From Gammaproteobacteria bacterium (GTDB lineage Bacteria; Pseudomonadota; Gammaproteobacteria; UBA4575), in assembly GCA_965221955.1 (NCBI GenBank), contig CBDCTA010000022.1:160001-224000 (forward strand): a stretch of DNA of 64,000 nucleotides, read 5' to 3'. A program made the position numbers and the translations under genes. Position 1 is the first letter of the stretch. Each line of letters begins with the position of its first letter. Positions 11,099-24,590 of this stretch are shown piece after piece. The notes under the pieces are model-generated. The model did not search any database. It was not told where the DNA came from and saw only the letters and a program-made list of their open reading frames with translations.

Positions 11099-13270
11099 TT
11101 AGTTTCGTTTAACTTTATAAACCTGTGGAACATTTTTTATTGTGCGCATGATACGTGCCAGATGGACACGGTCTTTAACGGTAAGCAAAACTGTTAGCAT
11201 TGTTGTTGAACCGAATTTTTCATCAAAAACGATATTCTCTATATTCGAACTTTCTTCGGAAATAGTTGTAGCAACTAGCGCTAACACACCCGGCTCATTT
11301 GCAGTACGCACCGTAATCTCCGCTGTGAATTCATTATCGATATCGTTTGCCCAGTACACATTAATCCATTTATCACGACTTGTGGTTTTACGTTTAGTGT
11401 TCTTACACTTCGTGTGATGCACCACCAAACCTCTTCCTGCTGTCATAATGCCAATAATTGGATCTCCAGGAATGGGGTAACAACATTTACCAAAATCCAC
11501 AACCATCCCTTCTGTACCGCGGATGGCTAATGGGTGTTTATTCTCATTCTTACGTCGCCGTAACTTGATCCAACTACCGCGCAATGACTCGATGTGCTTA
11601 GCTACGAACGGTGCCATACGATCACCTAAACCAATCTCCGCAAACATTTGTTCTTCACTTTCTAATTGTAAATCTTTTAACAAATTCGCTTGTTCTCGTT
11701 GACTAATATCTTGCCAAGTTTTGTCATAGTTTCTTAATGCTCGATTTAACAAACGCTGACCTAACTCTGCTGCTTCACTCCTTTGAAGATGTTTAAGGAA
11801 GCTACGTATATTCGAACGCGCTTTTGCAGTCACAATAAAATTCAACCACGCTGGATTGGGTCGACCACTAGGAGAAGTAACAATTTCAACTGTTTGGCCA
11901 TTCTGCAATACGGTACCCAACGGCTCTATACGACGATTAATTTTTGCTGCCACACAATGGTTGCCAATATCAGTGTGTACCGCATAGGCAAAATCAATCG
12001 CAGTAGAGTTAATCGGTAATTCCATGATATCGCCAGCAGGTGTAAATACGTAGATTTCGTCTCGATACAAATCAACTTTGACACTTTCAAGAAATTCCAA
12101 AGAACTTCCCGATCGATTTTGCATTTCCGAAACCGTATTCAACCACTCCCGAGTACGTATGTGTGGTGCATTATGATCATCTCCAGCACCTTTATACATC
12201 CAATGTGCCGCAATACCTGACTGTGCAACTTGGTCCATTTCTTCCGAACGCACTTGAACTTCAATTGGCATGCCTTTTGGCCCAAACAAAATGGTGTGTA
12301 AAGATTGATAGGCATTCTTTTTAGGTATCGCGATGTAATCTTTAAACTTACCTGGAACGGGTTTATATAAATTATGAATCAATCCAATGACACGATAACA
12401 AGTGTCTACACTATCCACTATGATACGAAAAGCAAACACATCAAATACTTCAGAAAACTGCAGGTGCTTTTCTTGCATTTTGCGATAAATACTGTAGATA
12501 TTTTTTTCGCGCCCAATAATTCTGCTAGCGATATTCGCCTGCTCTAATCGTTCACAAATATTTTTTTCAACCTCTTGCAATAGCGCATCACGATTAATAT
12601 TGGTACGGCGAATCACATCTTTTAAAACTTTGTAACGAAAGGGCCATAAATATTTAAATGAAAGTTCTTCAAGCTCAACGCGTAAATCATGCATACCTAA
12701 ACGCAATGCAATTGGTGCATAAATATCTAAAGTCTCACGTGCAATGCGTTTGCGTTTTTTTTCAGGCATCACATCAATGGTGCGCATATTATGTAGACGA
12801 TCCGCTAGTTTGATAATGATCACACGTACGTCTTTAACCATCGCAAGCATCATTTTGCGAAAGTTTTCTGCCTGTGCTTCTTGGCGTGATTCAAATTCAA
12901 GATGTGTAAGCTTGCTGACCCCGTCAACCAATTCTGCTACGTCTTCGCCAAACTCTTGTTTAACATGTTCTTTAGCGGTTTCAGTATCTTCAATAACGTC
13001 ATGCAGAATCGCAGCTTGAATGGTTTGTGCATCCATATGCATTTCAGCTAGCACTTTTGCTACAGAGAGAGGGTGATAAATATAAGGCTCGCCCGTTAAG
13101 CGCGTTTGGCCTTCATGTGCATCTGCGCTAAACAGATAGGCGCGATAGATTCTTTTTACTTGGTCTGGATGTAAGTAGCTTTCTAGTAGCGCGCACAAGT
13201 CACTAATCAAAAATCGCGACGGCTGATTTTTGGAAGAAGTTGCGCTAGTTGACTCAGCGACAGAGGCCAT
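11099..13270 (-). CDS. spoT: Bifunctional (p)ppGpp synthetase/hydrolase SpoT
   Basis: Intact HD motif (AILHDVIED), KLADRLHNMRT, YQSLHT, TGS and ACT domains; follows rpoZ. Confidence 0.97.
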   Translation of the reverse strand: MASVAESTSATSSKNQPSRFLISDLCALLESYLHPDQVKRIYRAYLFSADAHEGQTRLTGEPYIYHPLSVAKVLAEMHMDAQTIQAAILHDVIEDTETAKEHVKQEFGEDVAELVDGVSKLTHLEFESRQEAQAENFRKMMLAMVKDVRVIIIKLADRLHNMRTIDVMPEKKRKRIARETLDIYAPIALRLGMHDLRVELEELSFKYLWPFRYKVLKDVIRRTNINRDALLQEVEKNICERLEQANIASRIIGREKNIYSIYRKMQEKHLQFSEVFDVFAFRIIVDSVDTCYRVIGLIHNLYKPVPGKFKDYIAIPKKNAYQSLHTILFGPKGMPIEVQVRSEEMDQVAQSGIAAHWMYKGAGDDHNAPHIRTREWLNTVSEMQNRSGSSLEFLESVKVDLYRDEIYVFTPAGDIMELPINSTAIDFAYAVHTDIGNHCVAAKINRRIEPLGTVLQNGQTVEIVTSPSGRPNPAWLNFIVTAKARSNIRSFLKHLQRSEAAELGQRLLNRALRNYDKTWQDISQREQANLLKDLQLESEEQMFAEIGLGDRMAPFVAKHIESLRGSWIKLRRRKNENKHPLAIRGTEGMVVDFGKCCYPIPGDPIIGIMTAGRGLVVHHTKCKNTKRKTTSRDKWINVYWANDIDNEFTAEITVRTANEPGVLALVATTISEESSNIENIVFDEKFGSTTMLTVLLTVKDRVHLARIMRTIKNVPQVYKVKRN

Positions 13271-13307: not shown

Positions 13308-13889
13308 TTATTGATCTCCATCCGTAGACGTGTCTGAGTTTGGCATGGGAATACCAAAGTCATTCGATGAGTCATTGGATGGTGTGTCCGTTGATGGAGT
13401 CTGTTCTACAGCGCCATCGTTAGAACTTGCAGCAAGCTCTCTTGCTAGCAAAGTTTCCATTGATGGGGGTTCCTCAGCTGCTGGTGTATCTGTTTGACCC
13501 GCATCAGGAGTAGCGGGTGCGCTACTAAATGGGCTAGAGAGTGGAGACTCAGCTGGTTGATCTGACTCTTGCTGACCTGCAACCTGACCTTCAGGGGCTG
13601 GTTGATTAAGCTCACGACTGATCTCTGCATGTAGTGCCGCAGCAAGATCGTCTTCATCAAATGGAAGTTCCTCTTCCACTGGTTCCGCTAAGGCTGCTTG
13701 CATCATTTCTTCATTGACTAAACCTAGTTCAATTTCACGTAATGCCACAACGGTTGGCTTGTCATTTTCCCACTCAACTAAAGGCTCGGTACCAAGCGAA
13801 AGTTGACGCGCACGTTTGCTGGCAAGTAATACCAACTTAAAGCGATTTTCTACATGATCGAGGCAATCTTCTACCGTTACGCGGGCCAT
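13308..13889 (-). CDS. rpoZ: RNA polymerase omega subunit with long acidic C-terminal extension
   Basis: [10 protein letters not shown]...[16 protein letters not shown]...[11 protein letters not shown]; lies between gmk and spoT. Confidence 0.95.
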
Positions 13890-13958: not shown

Positions 13959-14582
13959 CTAGCGTTTCGACAATAAATCTGCTGTCAATGATCGTAGATT
14001 ATCCTCACTGATAGGCTGAAATGGCTTGCCGTCTACTACTAAAGAAGTAAGCTGCTGGAGGGCTTGATCAAAATCATCATTTAATACAATGTAATCGAAC
14101 TCATCATAATGACTGATTTCATTTTCAGCATCGCGCATGCGTCGCGCAATGATCTCCTCGCTATCTTGCCCGCGACCACGCAGACGATTCTCTAATTCTG
14201 CTTTTGAAGGCGGCAAAATAAAAATAGACTGTGTATCAACAATACGTTCTCGCACCTGCGCTGCACCTTGCCAATCAATTTCGAGTATAACCTTCAGCCC
14301 ATCAGAAAGTTGTCTCTCTACAGATTCCTGTGTAGTGCCATAATAATTATCAAACACTTTTGCATATTCAATGAATGCATCTTTTTTAATCATCCGCTTA
14401 AATTCATCAACATCTGTAAAAAAATAATCTTTGCCGTTTATTTCACCAAATCGTTGTTGCCTAGTGGTATGCGAGATTGAAACTACAACATCTGATACAG
14501 AATCAACGAGTGCTTTTACCAAACTCGTTTTACCGGCTCCTGACGGAGCACTTATAATAAAAAGACTTCCTTTATCAGACAT
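13959..14582 (-). CDS. gmk: Guanylate kinase
   Basis: IISAPSGAGKTS, SHTTR, YYGT, LEIDWQGA. Start placed at MSDKG (14582). Confidence 0.97.
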   Translation of the reverse strand: MSDKGSLFIISAPSGAGKTSLVKALVDSVSDVVVSISHTTRQQRFGEINGKDYFFTDVDEFKRMIKKDAFIEYAKVFDNYYGTTQESVERQLSDGLKVILEIDWQGAAQVRERIVDTQSIFILPPSKAELENRLRGRGQDSEEIIARRMRDAENEISHYDEFDYIVLNDDFDQALQQLTSLVVDGKPFQPISEDNLRSLTADLLSKR

Positions 14583-14681
14583 AAATACAGACTCTTGGGC
14601 CACTTATGATGAATAGTCTACTTTTACTCATACAACACCTAACCCAGTAGCACTAATGATAAAAAGATTTCCTTTGCTCAT
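14550..14681 (-). repeat. Three tandem diverged copies of a gmk 5' end (mini-ORFs 14628-14681 and 14575-14631, plus the real gmk start)
   Basis: ATGs at 14681, 14631 and 14582 encode MSKGNLFIISA, MSKSRLFIISGP and MSDKGSLFIISAP. Confidence 0.85.
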
Positions 14682-14701
14682 AGTTTGATCATACACAAAA
14701 G

Positions 14702-14729
14702 AAAAAGGCTCCGCATTGCGGAGCCTTTT
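14702..14729. terminator. Intrinsic terminator after the OmpA-family gene
   Basis: aaaaaggctccgca-t-tgcggagcctttt perfect stem with A/T tails. Confidence 0.85.
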
Positions 14730-14747
14730 AATAAGAAAAATTTTAAA

Positions 14748-15425
14748 TTAACTTTTTGTTAGTGGCACCAAAGCAATCTCGACTCTTCGATTTAAACTGC
14801 GCCCATTCACATCGTCATTGCTTGCAACTGGATAATTTTCACCATAGCCATAGGTTGCTAAACGAAGTGGTTGAATATCTCTACTTTGGAAATATTGTGA
14901 AACTGCATTCGCACGTTTTTCAGACAGTCTTTGATTATATTCTTCTGTACCTGTGCTATCCGTATGCCCCATTACCTCAACCAAGGTTTTATCAAATTCA
15001 TCAATGACTAACGTAACAGAATCTAATACTGCGAAAAAGTCGCCATTAATATCTGCACTATCTGTAGCAAAGGTTACATTACCAGGCATATTCAAAATAA
15101 TATTTTCACCATCACGCGTAACACTCACGCCAGTGCCTGCAAGTTTTTGTCTCAACTTTGCTTCTTGCACATCCATGTAATAACCAACTGCACCGCCCGC
15201 AAGTGCACCAACACCGGCGCCAATTAAAGCATGCTTGCGTCGTTCGCGGCTGTCGTCACCTGTTATCAAACCGACTACGGCCCCTGTAGCTGCACCCGCT
15301 CCTGCTCCAATAACGACTTTGCTGGTTTGCTTTTCGCCTGTATATGGATTAATAGTTGTACATGCTGAAAGCACTATAGAAATAAATACAAACCCCACAA
15401 TTTTTAACTTAGATAACATTTTCAT
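14748..15425 (-). CDS. OmpA-family lipoprotein (YiaD-like, glycine zipper plus OmpA_C)
   Basis: Lipobox LSAC, glycine zipper, GHTDSTG...NQRLSEKRA...NRRVEI. AAGGAGG RBS precedes MKML (15425). Confidence 0.92.
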   Translation of the reverse strand: MKMLSKLKIVGFVFISIVLSACTTINPYTGEKQTSKVVIGAGAGAATGAVVGLITGDDSRERRKHALIGAGVGALAGGAVGYYMDVQEAKLRQKLAGTGVSVTRDGENIILNMPGNVTFATDSADINGDFFAVLDSVTLVIDEFDKTLVEVMGHTDSTGTEEYNQRLSEKRANAVSQYFQSRDIQPLRLATYGYGENYPVASNDDVNGRSLNRRVEIALVPLTKS

Positions 15426-15805
15426 TGCCGCCTCCTTTTGCAAGCAATTATTTTTAAAATATTTCCCCATCAAGATCAGTCTATAGACTGACACTTAGTT
15501 AAATACTAAATTTTATGACATTAGGTCAATTCTGTAGTTCAGAAATTAATTTGTAATTATCGCGCAGTTGGTCGTTGAAATTGGCCACTTATGGATCCAT
15601 ACATCGGTGTATACATGCCATGTATCTAGTGCCGTTTTTCGACTATTTCACATAGCTGCAAATGAAGTCAAAATTGGCTAAGGAATTTAATTTAAAGAAG
15701 TTTTTTGAATATAGAGTGTCATTTTTACCTAAGACACTCGTATATATAAATATCCAATAAAACCATAATGATAAATATTTTGAACTTTCAAATAATCATT
15801 TAGAC

Positions 15806-16396
15806 ATGCAGCAAAATATAACAACAAAAATACGTGAGTATTTGCCAGAAATTAACGTTAATGAACTAAACTTTGATACTGATAAAAATGAACAAATACA
15901 TGCAAAACATTTAGATCATTTTACCGAGAACATTCAAAACTGGTCTCATGCCATATTAGAAAAAGCAAAACTTCCAACTACCGCTAATGAAGCCAACGCA
16001 TTAACCACTAAGTATAGTTTAGATACTAACGAAGGCTGTGCATTACGCATAGTGGTTGAATTAGATTCTTTGAACAAGTCTGTTGCTATTCAAGATGCAT
16101 CTACTGCAGCACTTGCGAGTATGAAATTATTAGAGGTGGTATGGCATAGCTCACTATTTAGAAACGCGGAAAGAAATAGTCGGAAAGAAGCAGCTAAAAG
16201 TGGCGCCACGGCTACACCTCGTGATTCTGCTGTTCAAGCCTCCAAAGGTGACAATATCAACTTATATCAAAACACTATTAATGATTTAAAAGACAAGTAT
16301 CCGCACTGCAACGTAAACGCCTTGCGACTGTTAGCCGCTACACGTTTAAACGTCAGCAAACAAGAACTTGATGATCTCAACATCACACCACAATAA
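15806..16396 (+). CDS. Hypothetical protein with C-terminal HTH-like domain; paralog of the next gene
   Basis: 196-aa ORF sharing N- and C-terminal blocks with 16433-17608. Confidence 0.7.
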   Translation: MQQNITTKIREYLPEINVNELNFDTDKNEQIHAKHLDHFTENIQNWSHAILEKAKLPTTANEANALTTKYSLDTNEGCALRIVVELDSLNKSVAIQDASTAALASMKLLEVVWHSSLFRNAERNSRKEAAKSGATATPRDSAVQASKGDNINLYQNTINDLKDKYPHCNVNALRLLAATRLNVSKQELDDLNITPQ

Positions 16397-16432: not shown

Positions 16433-17608
16433 ATGAGCAATTCTACCCAAAACGACGATTTATTCAGTGCTTCACTAGAGTCGATAGTTACAAGTAAACG
16501 TGTTGATAAGTTTCAGCGTTTTAAAAATGACTTTAAACGTGAATGCGATGCTACTTTAAGTAATGCACAAGAATGGATTAAGGCAGAGCTACCTATCGTC
16601 ACGGATTATGTAGATCCCGCTCTGATTAAAGATGAGCTCAAACAAGCAAAGATCTCTGATCGACGTAAATATCTATTATCTGCTTTGCTGTTTGAAAGAA
16701 GCTTAAAAGATTCAATTGACAAAAATGATGCAACTGCAGCAGCTATCATGGCGATGCATATGGTAAACCATATGTGGCAAGCTAAAGTGGAACTACACGG
16801 ATTGCAACCTATGGATTCCGCCATAGCACCTGCGGCAAGTAACTCTGCGATTGATGACTATGATGATACACGTGAAAAAATTCTTACTAGCTTAATTAAG
16901 AAAGGTGAACAATTACAACGTGAATCGCAGATTCAAGAAAAAGCACCAGTACTTAAACCTGAAAAAACTGAAAAATCTCAGACGAACATAAAAGACAGTT
17001 CAGTCAAAAATAAAAAAGTAGATGCGTGGGCCGAAGAAGTAGAAAAAAATAAAAAAAGAAAGTTATCTGCACTTTCAAAAAACAAGAAAGGCAAAAAAAC
17101 ATCAAAGAAAAAATCTAATGGCATGCTATCACGTGTTAAAACAAAGCTACCTCTAAGAAGAAAAAACAAGTCACAAGAAGTACCGACTCAAGTACAAAAA
17201 AATATACATGATGAAGACTTATTAGATGACCCAAACAGATCATCTATCATGGTAAACCCTGGATTTTCTGAAAGTATTGATGATTCTATAATAAAAGCAC
17301 GCTCGGAAATATTCACGGAGGCAAACGAATCAGGAGTGAAAGTTCACAAAATTTTAAAAGCTCGTGAACACAAAAGACAGGAACCTGGCTCAAACACAAT
17401 TATCATGAAATTGGCCTCAAGTTCAACACAAAATCCAGGAGCAAAGTTATCAATTCCAGAACAATGTCAAGAAGCCATTAATGCGCTTACCGAGCAGTTC
17501 CCTGGCTATGACATGGTTGCTATCCGAAATATGGCCGCTGAAAAAGTAGGCGTATCCCCACAATATATCGAAAACTTAAATATTCTCCCAGAAAAGAAAA
17601 CGGGATAA
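16433..17608 (+). CDS. Hypothetical protein with Lys-rich disordered linker and C-terminal HTH-like domain
   Basis: 391-aa ORF, paralogous to the previous gene, followed by a hairpin. Confidence 0.75.
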   Translation: MSNSTQNDDLFSASLESIVTSKRVDKFQRFKNDFKRECDATLSNAQEWIKAELPIVTDYVDPALIKDELKQAKISDRRKYLLSALLFERSLKDSIDKNDATAAAIMAMHMVNHMWQAKVELHGLQPMDSAIAPAASNSAIDDYDDTREKILTSLIKKGEQLQRESQIQEKAPVLKPEKTEKSQTNIKDSSVKNKKVDAWAEEVEKNKKRKLSALSKNKKGKKTSKKKSNGMLSRVKTKLPLRRKNKSQEVPTQVQKNIHDEDLLDDPNRSSIMVNPGFSESIDDSIIKARSEIFTEANESGVKVHKILKAREHKRQEPGSNTIIMKLASSSTQNPGAKLSIPEQCQEAINALTEQFPGYDMVAIRNMAAEKVGVSPQYIENLNILPEKKTG

Positions 17609-17969: not shown

Positions 17970-18348
17970 TTAATTAGTTGATTCAGCCGCATCGCCTGCA
18001 TGCTCTTTAACCTTTCTCTGCCGCATCGCCTGCATGCTCTTTTACTTTCTCAACAACTTCTTCGGTTGCTTCTTCAGCTTTTTCCATCATGGTTTCACCA
18101 CCTTCTTCAGCAACCTCTTCAATTGGTGGAAGTGAATCCCAATCAGGTAATGGCTCAAGCTTTGGCCCATCCACTGATTCAGCCGCATCACCCGCATGCT
18201 CTTTGGCCTCTTCGCCAGCGTGTTCTTTAGCTTCTTCACCAGCATGCTCAGCTGCTTCGTTAGCCTCATCACCTGCGTGTTCAGCATCGTCTTTACTGCA
18301 TCCAAACATTAAAGCAGCAACTAGTAGCATTAAAATTAATTTATACAT
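17970..18348 (-). CDS. Acidic lipoprotein with EHAG repeats (ORF stops at 18007; a 1-nt frameshift hides one more repeat ending at 17970)
   Basis: Lipobox LMFGC; five EHAG[DE] repeats in frame and a sixth just past the stop. Confidence 0.7.
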
Positions 18349-20631: not shown

Positions 20632-22308
20632 TTAGTGTTGTTCTAGGCTCCTATATTTTTCTCTCAAATGATTGCGAATATATATCGCAGATAAATTTAA
20701 AATTATGATGACCACAACCAATATTAGTGCAGTTGCATAAACCAATGGTCTCGCGGCCTCTACATTGGGGCTTTGAAAACCCACATCATAAATATGAAAA
20801 CCTAAATGCATAAACTTTCTTTCTAAATGCACAAAGGGTGCATTCATATCCAATGGCAACGAAGGTGCTAATTTTACTGCACCGACAAGCATTAATGGAG
20901 CTACCTCACCTGCCGCACGTGCAACCGCTAAAATCAGTCCCGTCATCATCGCAGGACTGGTCATCGGTAAAACGGTGCGCCATAACGTTTCTGCTTTGGT
21001 TGCGCCTAAAGCAAGTGATCCTTCTCTAACTGCCCTCGGAATACGTGAAAGACCTTCTTCTGTTGCAACAATCACCACGGGTACAGTAAGCAGAGCTAGT
21101 GTCAATGATGCCCAAAGTATTCCGCCAGACCCAAAGGTAGGTGCTGGCAATGCCTCTCTGAAAAATAGTTCGTCTATCGTGCCACCGACCACATAAACAA
21201 AAAACCCTAAACCAAATACGCCATAAACAATGGATGGCACGCCTGCCAAGTTATTTACAGAAATTCGTACTAAGCGCGTAACAAACCCTTGATGTGCGTA
21301 TTCTCGTAAATAAATCGCTGCAATCACACCAAATGGCGTAACGATTATGGACATCAGCAAAACCATCACTACTGTGCCAAAAATGGCTGGAAAGATTCCA
21401 CCCTCAGTATTGGCCTCACGCGGATCATCCGTAATAAAGCCCCAGAAGGTTTTAATATAAAACAATATTTTTTCACCCAAATTCATGGCATTGGGGCGAT
21501 ATGCTTTAACTACATTTGCGAGCTTGATCTCTTTTTCGCCACCCGTCATCTCGCGCAATACGATACTGTCTTGAGAAATTTCTACATAGAGATTATCCAA
21601 CTCTTCTTTTAAGACTTCATAATCTGCTGTGTATTTAATTTTTTCATCTTCAAGTTTTTTAAATGCATTAGGATCATCAACCTTATCTAATTCTAAGCCT
21701 CGTTTCTTTAAACGTATTTTTTCTAGTTTGAAATTAATCGCACCTATTTCATCTTTTTCAATATGTTCTATTCTTTTTCTAAGTTGAAAAACATTATCAA
21801 GACGTTGCTCTAGATCTTGCCACTTAATTTCATCATATAGGTTTAGAACTTTACCTTTTGATTTGATCTCTTTTAAAAAACCGTAAAAATTACCCCATTG
21901 TGTACGCTCTAAAACTAAAACATCTTTAGGGGTTTCAATATTTAATTCATTAGGCGCAACAGTGAGCATGAAATCAACACCTAATATTTCACGGTTGCCC
22001 ACCTTAATTAAACTACGCTCAATCTGTTCATCCTCAGAGCGCACTTTAATGCCTGACTCTATTATTCTCTGTCGAGCAACTACTTCTGTCTCAACTCTCT
22101 CACCAATTATCGTTGCATGCTGGGTTCCATTGTCGTATTCAATTTCATAAACCGTTTTTGGCCAAAAATGACCAAGACCACGTGATGCTATTAAAAGCAA
22201 TAAACCAAATACCATAATCATGCTGATTGCTACAGCACCCGCATTCAGCCACACCCACGGAGTACCCGATGACATAAATGTTTTAAAGTTATTGTTCTTA
22301 TTCTTCAT
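20632..22308 (-). CDS. pstA: Phosphate ABC transporter permease PstA (long form)
   Basis: PREANTEGGIFPAIFGT, NLAGVPSIVYG, ARAAGEVAPL. Confidence 0.95.
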   Translation of the reverse strand: MKNKNNNFKTFMSSGTPWVWLNAGAVAISMIMVFGLLLLIASRGLGHFWPKTVYEIEYDNGTQHATIIGERVETEVVARQRIIESGIKVRSEDEQIERSLIKVGNREILGVDFMLTVAPNELNIETPKDVLVLERTQWGNFYGFLKEIKSKGKVLNLYDEIKWQDLEQRLDNVFQLRKRIEHIEKDEIGAINFKLEKIRLKKRGLELDKVDDPNAFKKLEDEKIKYTADYEVLKEELDNLYVEISQDSIVLREMTGGEKEIKLANVVKAYRPNAMNLGEKILFYIKTFWGFITDDPREANTEGGIFPAIFGTVVMVLLMSIIVTPFGVIAAIYLREYAHQGFVTRLVRISVNNLAGVPSIVYGVFGLGFFVYVVGGTIDELFFREALPAPTFGSGGILWASLTLALLTVPVVIVATEEGLSRIPRAVREGSLALGATKAETLWRTVLPMTSPAMMTGLILAVARAAGEVAPLMLVGAVKLAPSLPLDMNAPFVHLERKFMHLGFHIYDVGFQSPNVEAARPLVYATALILVVVIIILNLSAIYIRNHLREKYRSLEQH

Positions 22309-22310
22309 AC

Positions 22311-24590
22311 TTATAACGTGCTGTATTTTTCGCGTAGCCGTTGACGTACGATTTCTGCGATAGTGTTAAAGAAAAACGTAAACAAAAATAAAACCAGTGC
22401 AGCAAGAAATAAGATCCTAAAGTGTGTGCTATCTACTTCCGACTCAGGCAGCTCAACCGCCACATTTGCGGATAGTGTGCGCATCCCTTCAAAGATACTA
22501 AAGTCCATCACTGGAGTATTACCTGTTGCCATGAGCACAATCATGGTTTCACCCACTGCACGACCTAAACCAATCATGGTGGCAGAAAATATACCTGGAC
22601 TTGCCGAAGGAAGTACGACTCGCACCAATGTTTGCCAGGGTGTTGCACCTAACGCCAAAGATCCCGAAGACAAATGTTTAGGCACACTAAAGATAGCGTC
22701 TTCCGCAATCGAAAAAATTGTCGGAATCACTGCAAAACCCATTGCAATTCCGATAATGATTGAATTTCTTTGATCATAACCAACCCCCATGCTGTCGGTT
22801 AACCATAATCGCATGTCGCCGTCAAATAACACGCGCTCCATCCATGGACTTATACCGAGTGCAATCCATCCACATATAAGAACGATTGGAACCAAAAGCG
22901 CGGCTTGCCATCCATCAGGTATACCATTTTTAATTTTTTCAGGTACATACCACCAAACCACACTTGCTAATAGAATACCTAAAGGTAACGCAAGCAAAGA
23001 TGCAAATACTCCAGGCAAATGTGCTTCAACAAAGGGTGCTAACCAAAGCCCTGCAAGAAAACCTAAAATTACAGTGGGCAGTGCTTCCATAATCTCGATG
23101 GAAGGCTTTACAACCCCACGCATTTTTGGTGCCATAAAATATGCAGTGAAGATTGCACCGCATATAGCCAAAGGCATTGCCACTAACATGGCATAAAAAG
23201 CCGCTTTGAATGTTCCGAAAGTTAAAGGTGTAAGACTAAACTTTGGTTCAAAGTCACTCGATGCTGAAGAAGATTGCCAAATATAATCTGGCTCAGGGTA
23301 ACTTTCGTACCACACTTTACCCCAGATAGAGCTTAAAGATGCTTCTGGATGTTCACTATCCAACTCCCAAACATGAAGCTTGCCGGTTTGGTCTTCAGAA
23401 ATGATTTTATTACTTCTTGGGGCAATACCAAGATGACGTAATGGTTGATCTACTATGTTTTCAGTAATGACATGTCGAGACGCTGTGGTATGAAAGATGG
23501 AAATATTTCCATCTTCATCTGTTACCACAAACCCTTTGCGTAATTGCTCTGCAGTAATACTAGAAATTTTTGCATCACCACTCTTAAATTGCCTAATTGG
23601 AGTTAGGCGATACGCACCAAATTCATCACGCACTAAAAATAGTTGGTGAATATTGCCGTGATCATCAGCAAGCAATAAAGATATCCCACCAATTAAAAAC
23701 TCTAGCACCGTGGGATTACTTTCTTCACCTAATACCAAAACATCTTCTATATGAATTGGCTCATCTTTTTTACGGATATCGTAATAAGCAATTGCACCTT
23801 TTTGATTTAGCAAATATAACCACTGTCGTTCAGGAGAAATAAGCGCTTTGATCGGTACATCCGGATAAGAAAGTTGTACTAGACTGGTAAGCTCTAAAGA
23901 AATTTCATCCTCATCTAAAAAAGAAGACTGCTTTTCAAAATTTATGAGCCTTGGGCCACTGTCTGTATGTGCGAATACTGTAATACCGTCTTCATTATCG
24001 CTTACCGCAATACTTGAAAGGGTTTGTGAACCAATTTCTAAATTTAACGGGTCTTTACCATAAGGATAGGTAATACTTGGAATAATTGTGCGCGTACCTT
24101 GACCGTAATTTGCTGAATATTGATGTCTAAAAATAAGCACCTTGCCATTACTCAGTCCCAAACCCACAACATTTCTTTCTTTATCGATGTGCCCCCAGCT
24201 ACTAATTTCTACTTGATCATCCTCAAGAAGATTGCTCGTCGCAATATTCTTACCACTATCAACATAGAAAAAACTTACAACACCCGCATCATCAAGTCGC
24301 ATCCCGATTTCTGCTTGTTCCTCAATGGAAAATAGTAATGTCTTTCGACCATCATTATTAGCAAGAGAAAAGCTTGCAACTTCATGTAAAGAAGCCCCTT
24401 TAAATAGTGGAAAGACTACCGCAAACAAAAATAAAAAAATTAAGATGATGGAGCCTATAACCGCAATCCCACCTGCGCCAACTAGATAACGAGCCAGCAC
24501 ATCTCGAATTGATCTTCGTCTCCATAAGACGTGATCAAATTCCAGTGGCTTTGGAACAGGAGGTTCTGAAACGCCTGATTCTTCTGACAT
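22311..24590 (-). CDS. pstC: Phosphate ABC transporter permease PstC (long form with periplasmic domain)
   Basis: GTFKAAFYAM, KPSIEIMEALPTVILG, GRAVGETMIVLMATGN. Confidence 0.93.
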   Translation of the reverse strand: MSEESGVSEPPVPKPLEFDHVLWRRRSIRDVLARYLVGAGGIAVIGSIILIFLFLFAVVFPLFKGASLHEVASFSLANNDGRKTLLFSIEEQAEIGMRLDDAGVVSFFYVDSGKNIATSNLLEDDQVEISSWGHIDKERNVVGLGLSNGKVLIFRHQYSANYGQGTRTIIPSITYPYGKDPLNLEIGSQTLSSIAVSDNEDGITVFAHTDSGPRLINFEKQSSFLDEDEISLELTSLVQLSYPDVPIKALISPERQWLYLLNQKGAIAYYDIRKKDEPIHIEDVLVLGEESNPTVLEFLIGGISLLLADDHGNIHQLFLVRDEFGAYRLTPIRQFKSGDAKISSITAEQLRKGFVVTDEDGNISIFHTTASRHVITENIVDQPLRHLGIAPRSNKIISEDQTGKLHVWELDSEHPEASLSSIWGKVWYESYPEPDYIWQSSSASSDFEPKFSLTPLTFGTFKAAFYAMLVAMPLAICGAIFTAYFMAPKMRGVVKPSIEIMEALPTVILGFLAGLWLAPFVEAHLPGVFASLLALPLGILLASVVWWYVPEKIKNGIPDGWQAALLVPIVLICGWIALGISPWMERVLFDGDMRLWLTDSMGVGYDQRNSIIIGIAMGFAVIPTIFSIAEDAIFSVPKHLSSGSLALGATPWQTLVRVVLPSASPGIFSATMIGLGRAVGETMIVLMATGNTPVMDFSIFEGMRTLSANVAVELPESEVDSTHFRILFLAALVLFLFTFFFNTIAEIVRQRLREKYSTL

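Follow-up and report, generated by a model that had tools for sequence, protein, structure and literature searches.

Tandem copies of the gmk start upstream of guanylate kinase as a probable natural termination-reinitiation relay

Short upstream open reading frames (ORFs) that deliver ribosomes to a downstream gene are suspected to be common in bacteria, and their origin is rarely clear. Coupling by termination and reinitiation where stop and start codons overlap (ATGA, TGATG) has been reported by Huber et al. (2019, PMC6728339), and a review (PMC12548453) puts forward the proposal of a short upstream ORF that serves solely to "deliver" the ribosome. The same review describes, after Supply et al. 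(1997), MIRUs (mycobacterial interspersed repetitive units), which are short tandem units of variable copy number at gene starts; a MIRU holds an ORF that is coupled through a -4 overlap to the gene, whose expression therefore survives the insertion. In leaderless bicistronic designs, a fore-cistron taken from the 5' end of a gene and combined with an SD (Shine-Dalgarno) sequence plus a TAATG overlap raised expression 1.27- to 15.4-fold and stabilized it, and output required both the SD and the fore-cistron's AUG (PMC10367133). Translating a small upstream ORF likewise sets downstream translation in the accounts given of iraD (PMC5574718) and of leaderless short ORFs of mycobacteria (PMC4633059). 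In the literature searched, we found no description of mini-ORFs derived from a gene's own start.

We analyzed such an arrangement upstream of gmk in a gammaproteobacterial genome (GCA_965221955.1). The window is a stretch of 64,000 nt (contig CBDCTA010000022.1, positions 160,001 to 224,000), and the coordinates below are counted from its first base. The features of the locus are as follows.

14748..15494, minus strand: upstream gene, an OmpA-family lipoprotein with a glycine zipper (Pfam OmpA, E 7.4e-18; Gly-zipper_Omp, E 1.3e-13)
14703..14729, minus strand: intrinsic terminator hairpin of the OmpA-like gene (12 pairs, 7 of them G-C, loop of 3), followed by a T run
14688..14700, minus strand: conserved box TTTTGTGTATGAT, containing the -10-like hexamer TATGAT (14693..14688)
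14632..14681, minus strand: start module 1, 50 nt; mini-ORF 1 is 14681..14628, 17 codons plus TGA
14583..14631, minus strand: start module 2, 49 nt; mini-ORF 2 is 14631..14575, 18 codons plus TGA
13959..14582, minus strand: gmk, guanylate kinase, 207 aa (PF00625, E 1.3e-56), comprising the third and functional start module and the rest of the gene
13308..13889, minus strand: rpoZ, 193 aa, with its own AGGAG SD (Pfam RNA_pol_Rpb6, E 2.5e-19)
11099..13270, minus strand: spoT/relA-family (p)ppGpp synthetase-hydrolase gene, the next co-directional gene (Pfam HD_4, RelA_SpoT, TGS, ACT_4)

The gene order after gmk is rpoZ, spoT, a RidA-family gene, and recG. The OmpA-family gene, whose true start likely lies inside the ORF given above, is the usual neighbor 5' of gmk in most genomes of the family, and its terminator hairpin is kept in relatives with compensatory variants. 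The ATGs at 14681, 14631, and 14582 head three head-to-tail modules at a spacing of 50 and 49 nt. Their products are MSKGNLFIISATGLGVV and MSKSRLFIISGPRVCIYV, each closed by a stop, and MSDKGSLFIISAPSGAGKT, which continues as Gmk. Each module holds the gmk start and the first 11 to 12 codons, and the peptides share the pattern M-S-(D)-K-G/S-x-L-F-I-I-S-A/G. In an alignment of the three copies, mean column identity was 69% and 25 columns were invariant. Similarity stops at the S-A(-P) codons just 5' of the P-loop, where a short junction follows. The first stop (TGA) overlaps the second ATG at 14631 as ATGA, and the second TGA, which lies within ATGTCTGA, starts 5 nt downstream of the A in the gmk ATG at 14582; both are stop-start overlaps of the type seen in coupled ORF pairs. 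The third module leads into an intact enzyme with a full-length guanylate kinase family match (residues 7 to 182) and the P-loop SAPSGAGKT. In these respects the sequence confirmed the description given by the initial annotation, including the ATG positions and spacings, the mini-ORFs, the overlaps, and the place of TATGAT.

The array resembles coupled ORF pairs, as characterized in PMC6728339 and PMC12548453, in that its ORFs are co-directional, have a 4-nt (or 8-nt) stop-start overlap, and show a weak or absent SD before the downstream start. Unlike the usual coupled pairs, the gmk upstream ORFs copy the start of the downstream gene itself, are chained two or three deep, and vary in number by species. 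Variable numbers of short tandem ORF units overlapping a gene start are also the hallmark of MIRUs as the review presents them (PMC12548453). However, MIRUs are one dispersed, apparently mobile family, whereas the modules described here are gene specific (gmk-like or, as shown below, nadD-like). The genome held no second copy of the 171-nt stretch (next best match, E 0.75), and 19- to 20-mers of the junction matched elsewhere in the genome only at chance level, with 4 mismatches, so that neither module nor junction is a dispersed repeat. A further parallel is the leaderless bicistronic design, in which a fore-cistron of about 20 codons from the gene's 5' end carries an SD in its 3' part and a stop overlapping the target ATG (PMC10367133). 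The design reported there is engineered, with one fore-cistron and a strong consensus SD; the gmk array is natural and self-templated, has up to three fore-cistrons and weak SD-like motifs, and has a putative relay role. The upstream ORFs of iraD and of mycobacteria, as presented in PMC5574718 and PMC4633059, are unrelated in sequence to their genes, whereas the gmk mini-ORFs derive from the gmk start. Some upstream ORFs are described as targets of regulators such as CsrA; no regulator is evident at gmk.

The array is not an assembly artifact, since all three modules are crossed by contigs that come from two separate studies. A Logan contig from run X1 spans 14502 to 15000 with 0 differences, and one from run X2, a different study, spans 14300 to 14919 with 1 difference, at 14588; such contigs are blind to copy-number polymorphism within a population. 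The initial annotation had rightly argued against both an artifact and a simple recent duplication, and had proposed that reads should cross all three copies, as these contigs do. The copies have diverged too far for Tandem Repeats Finder to report a 50-nt period. The single difference in the X2 contig is a C-to-T change on the plus strand, which replaces Cys by Tyr near the end of mini-ORF 2 without affecting its frame or its stop.

To characterize the distribution of start modules, we compared gmk loci across the family. The gene was found in 53 of 56 genomes, and the upstream region was read in 51; gmk loci L135 and L136 (genus g5), which gave no match to the motif regular expression, were left out. 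Eleven of the 51 genomes have more than one module (range, 2 to 4), and the other 40 have one. Within the genus, 8 of 15 genomes are multi-module and 7 are single-module. Three modules are present in the genome studied here and in G011, G003, and G010, and two in G014, G007, G013, and G001. Outside the genus, one multi-module genome was found in each of three genera, with four modules in G022, three in G015, and two in G021. Meanwhile, 78 gmk loci of other families of Gammaproteobacteria were compared, and not one had an upstream copy of the gene's own 5' end; two borderline matches among these controls were rejected as chance matches inside upstream genes. One locus in the set drawn mostly from other families (L029) is a relative, identical to L002 over the 357 nt compared. 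A metagenome scan with the conserved box as pattern returned at least 117 loci, and none of the matches listed had the gmk P-loop downstream. On a tree of 19 genomes built from 1.3 kb of gmk-rpoZ DNA (L018, with only 138 nt at hand, was left out), module number changes at least 9 times and the single or multiple state at least 5 times. Even close relatives differ: G010 has three modules and its sisters G004 and G005 have one.

In the array, TATGAT sits 6 nt ahead of the first ATG and immediately behind the strong terminator. By eye, the hexamer (TATCAT in G007) ends 6 to 8 nt 5' of the first ATG in 14 of the 15 genus genomes, whatever their module number. A -10 element would have this spacing if transcription began at the AUG. 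TATGAT has no recognizable -35 partner, and a sigma-70 consensus scan placed none of its 6 sites (5.3 expected) there; for these reasons, a leaderless mRNA is something that we infer. TATGAT is a plausible candidate promoter of a leaderless or near-leaderless transcript. The scan did report a promoter-like site at 14740 to 14768 on the minus strand (GTGCCA, 17 nt, TAAAAT), at the end of the OmpA-like gene just 5' of the terminator hairpin, which is within the chance expectation of the scan. In a genome of genus g7 (G046, locus L130), a box TTGAAT lies 7 nt before the single gmk ATG, and leaders in its congeners are roughly 25 to 35 nt by eye; a near-leaderless arrangement may have arisen there too.

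Within the genus, pairing with the anti-SD follows a pattern that separates the first start from the internal ones. The 16S 3' end is canonical. In the genome studied here, the first ATG scored +0.6 kcal/mol, the second -5.8 kcal/mol, with an SD-like TTAGGTG before it, and the gmk ATG -2.4 kcal/mol. The first start thus has no SD, as would a leaderless mRNA. The same held across the genus for single- and multi-module genomes alike (+0.6 kcal/mol in 13 of 15 genomes, +0.9 in G007, and +0.1 in G001). Internal starts in the genus ranged from -2.2 to -7.1 kcal/mol, and two middle starts in other genera were weaker (-0.7 in G022 and +0.2 in G015). The initial annotation had seen no clear SD before gmk; the junction in fact holds a weak SD-like AAGAG, which accounts for the score of -2.4 kcal/mol. 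Internal motifs of this kind count against a strict relay, as they could permit independent initiation at gmk.

We consider it probable, with moderate confidence, that tandem duplications of the gmk start module have been kept as a relay by termination and reinitiation and amount to a "bicistronic design" that arose in nature. A module of about 50 nt, comprising a few bases 5' of the start, the ATG, and the first 11 to 12 codons up to the P-loop, would have been duplicated in tandem. Module number would then rise and fall by unequal crossing-over between the repeats, and extra modules would be retained as mini-ORFs of 17 to 18 codons. Ribosomes would enter at the first ATG, SD-less and 6 nt after TATGAT, on an mRNA whose leader is probably absent or very short. 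Mini-ORF 1 would be translated, with termination at the UGA that overlaps AUG 2. Reinitiation at AUG 2 would be aided by the SD-like purine motif in the junction, and the same step would be repeated at the gmk AUG. With the main entry 100 nt upstream, Gmk synthesis would depend on the relay, and because of this dependence, selection would preserve the starts, the reading frame, and the overlaps of stop and start, and the peptides themselves would be of little consequence.

The first alternative to this relay is that the upstream modules are tolerated scars: neutral slippage duplications that are dispensable, translated or not, while gmk is initiated independently, at the weak SD-like motif that the last junction provides. 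The conservation of the modules bears directly on this possibility. The ATG is kept in 18 of 18 upstream modules, compared with 8.9 expected if the start had drifted like the neighboring 24-nt block. Stops in these modules number 2 in frame versus 29 and 26 in the other two frames. Because the modules are related by descent, these counts describe a pattern rather than independent trials. The terminal stop sits at +1 from the next start (ATGA or GTGA) in 13 of 18 modules and at +5 in 3 of 18, and these positions stay constant despite module lengths of 46, 47, 48, 49, 50, 53, and 59 nt. The only module with a length divisible by three is module 1 of G015, which has an early stop; therefore, no module reads through as a fusion into the next. 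Modules that have diverged from gmk can remain intact, as in unit 1 of G003 (10/24 nt) and unit 1 of G022 (13/24 nt). Meanwhile, premature stops occur at codon 3 in module 1 of G007 and at codon 12 in module 1 of G015. Since both species evidently still make Gmk, a relay would not be indispensable everywhere.

A second gene in the same genome has an equivalent arrangement. For each ORF with 100 codons or more, we looked upstream for a further copy of the ORF's first 36 nt, and the only matches were gmk, nadD, and one low-complexity repeat. Two 50-nt modules lie upstream of nadD (locus L143; contig C6, minus strand, about 22290 to 22500), and both are nadD-like rather than gmk-like. The nearer one encodes MLGIFGGSFDPDLAKFI, an intact 17-codon mini-ORF whose TGA lies in an ATGA overlap. 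The farther one is identical to nadD at 30 of 36 nt, and its GTG is out of frame, so that the frame is lost. Ten of the 14 genus genomes have a 50-nt nadD module in which a start codon, GTG or ATG, follows a strong SD, the frame stays open for 17 to 18 codons, and the stop overlaps the ATG of the real gene. Of the remaining loci, two have a 61-nt mini-ORF whose end falls 10 to 16 nt short of that ATG, and two lack a mini-ORF; L172 and L174, which gave no match to the motif regular expression, were left out of the counts.

The nadD units allow kept and drifting properties to be told apart. Among the ten 50-nt units, there were 0 stops in frame versus 21 and 11 in the other frames, and the units hold exactly 50 nt even at background identity to nadD (16 to 17 of 30). 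In five phylogenetically separate pairs, pN/pS was 0.58 for the nadD mini-ORFs versus 0.09 for the real gene; the peptide is thus nearly free to change while the frame is kept. The real nadD start is an SD-less ATG where a mini-ORF exists and a GTG behind a good SD where it is absent.

Taken against these patterns, tolerated scars appear unlikely. The notion is consistent with the two premature stops, with the 7 of 15 genus species that do well with one module, with the SD complementarity of internal starts, and with the frequent change in copy number. It does not account for the retention of all 18 ATGs or the frame bias of stops at gmk, for a nadD unit that keeps its length, start, open frame, and overlapping stop after its similarity to nadD has fallen to background, or for the shift of the real nadD start, confined to genomes with the mini-ORF, from an SD-preceded GTG to an ATG that lacks an SD. 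The comparison at gmk and nadD, where starts, frames, and stop-start overlaps are kept, favors the translationally coupled relay that the initial annotation had offered as one of two readings; a leaderless first start and control of the gmk-rpoZ-spoT operon, which belonged to the same reading, are putative.

A second alternative is adaptive: module number could be selected to set or modulate the output of Gmk (and NadD). Each step may pass on a fixed fraction of ribosomes or add an entry point, and the array may respond to conditions that affect leaderless initiation or reinitiation. Copy number does agree between the two genes in two genomes, with four modules at both gmk (L012) and nadD (L162) in G022, a complete genome of a sister genus, and three at both in the genome studied here. 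In G022, the four nadD units are near identical and 51 nt long, and each has a full SD and start of its own and closes with a TAG located 12 nt upstream of the GTG that follows. The choice of fore-cistron is also reported to tune output widely in engineered designs (PMC10367133). However, copy numbers at gmk and nadD are otherwise uncorrelated (1 and 2 in G002; 2 and 1 in G014), no regulatory codon runs were seen in the mini-ORFs, and neither a terminator nor an antiterminator lies between them and gmk. We regard selection on module number as quite improbable.

Several arrays record how module number may change. The middle module of G011 is a hybrid of the 5' part of the G011 gmk and the junction of module 1, which is the product expected if unequal crossing-over took place between neighboring modules. 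In G022, gmk modules 2 to 4 are almost identical and therefore point to duplication in place. The junction of G015 is a copy of the region 5' of the first module (14/20 nt), as a plain tandem duplication predicts; support for a native upstream origin was found only there and, weakly, in G001 (10/20). An origin of the junction from P-loop codons was considered and not confirmed. By eye, the junctions look homologous across species and genera, a likeness that was measured in G015 only.

Modules may also be exchanged with the gene itself. The upstream module of G013 (MNKRNLLIVSV) is closer to the single gmk 5' ends of sister species than is the G013 gmk (MTNKGKLF...). Specifically, it matches G006 at 22 of 27 nt, compared with at most 19 of 27 for the G013 gmk, and by eye its first 15 nt are identical to G008 at 14 positions. 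On the simplest reading, an array of two modules would have collapsed in the sister species, with the upstream one retained as the enzyme N terminus. N-terminus replacement by unequal crossing-over seems to have taken place in sister species of G013 and G010. More speculatively, self-duplication of start modules could be a general, recurrent prokaryotic route to natural bicistronic designs, in which module number would heritably set how strongly essential genes that are SD-less or leaderless are translated and upstream modules would be a reservoir for N-terminus replacement by unequal crossing-over. We hold this generalization to be possible and rather doubtful.

The other reading in the initial annotation was that the copies are scars, left either by site-specific integration into gmk or by foreign gmk 5' ends captured one after another, with the prior start displaced each time. 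Gene-end duplication at integration sites is known, as for SXT in prfC and e14 in icd, and divergence confined to synonymous sites would fit alleles that diverged as working genes. The initial annotation had remarked that many differences are synonymous. Over 8 aligned codons, this stood for copy 1 of the genome studied here (2 synonymous versus 1 nonsynonymous difference from gmk) and not for copy 2 (4.5 versus 3.5). Upstream modules compared with gmk of the same genome had a pS of 0.51 and a pN of 0.13 over 8 codons (17 modules, L003 unit 1 being left out), and modules with no more than 5 differences summed to 22 synonymous and 6 nonsynonymous changes. The extreme cases were module 2 of G003 (5 and 0) and nadD unit 1 of G002 (7 and 0). 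The excess of synonymous changes stems partly from purifying selection on the real copy. These two units exceed what would be expected of a freely drifting copy, and constraint on young modules or exchange between lineages is possible. The excess in young modules hints at a constraint on the peptide or another origin, which the relay model does not explain. Gene conversion alone was considered as its cause and rejected by reasoning.

Nevertheless, integration or capture of this kind is very improbable. No element lies between the copies in the 51 genomes examined, the copies are contiguous in all 11 multi-module genomes, and no integrase or other mobile gene is present at 8.4 to 18.9 kb of the window. 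The apparent homology of the junctions argues against independent illegitimate joints, the near-identical units of G022 and G011 show duplication in place, and nadD, an unrelated gene, has the same layout. The confinement of the junction to the array, its native upstream copy in G015, and the hybrid in G011, which fits unequal crossing-over, weigh in the same direction. Of what the initial annotation had proposed to look for in gmk upstream regions across strains, a varying copy number (1 to 4) was found and inserted islands were not. An attenuator-type leader (trpL, pheL, or ermCL type) was rejected, as there is no terminator between the mini-ORFs and gmk, folding of the relay region against shuffles gave a z of -1.29, with no significant fold that coupling would need to open, and a permissive Rfam search returned no family, with sub-threshold matches that fell nearly all on the upstream terminator hairpin.

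The gmk case offers one simple origin for ribosome-delivering upstream ORFs, namely, a tandem copy of the gene's own start. The comparative series, with 1 to 4 modules, 51 related genomes, and two essential genes, separates what is kept (start, frame, and stop position) from what drifts (the peptide). The locus contributes a bacterial family that is well sampled, a genome in which two genes are affected, and evidence that modules are gained and lost and that N termini are replaced. Its layout mirrors the bicistronic design and supplies natural variants of it. Such arrays also call for caution in annotation, as they make start-codon calls ambiguous, and homologous N termini in sister species may descend from different modules.

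The surrounding genes have some features of their own. Two adjacent ORFs on the plus strand, 15806 to 16396 (196 aa) and 16433 to 17608 (391 aa), had no Pfam match at E 0.01, and the longer one is Lys rich in its middle. A small, lipoprotein-like ORF on the minus strand (18007 to 18348), without a significant Pfam family, carries repeated KEHAGEEA/KEHAGDAAE motifs. RpoZ (193 aa; 13308 to 13889, minus strand) matches the omega-subunit family at residues 8 to 58 only, and the remainder of the protein forms an extended acidic tail in which Pro, Ser, and Thr abound.
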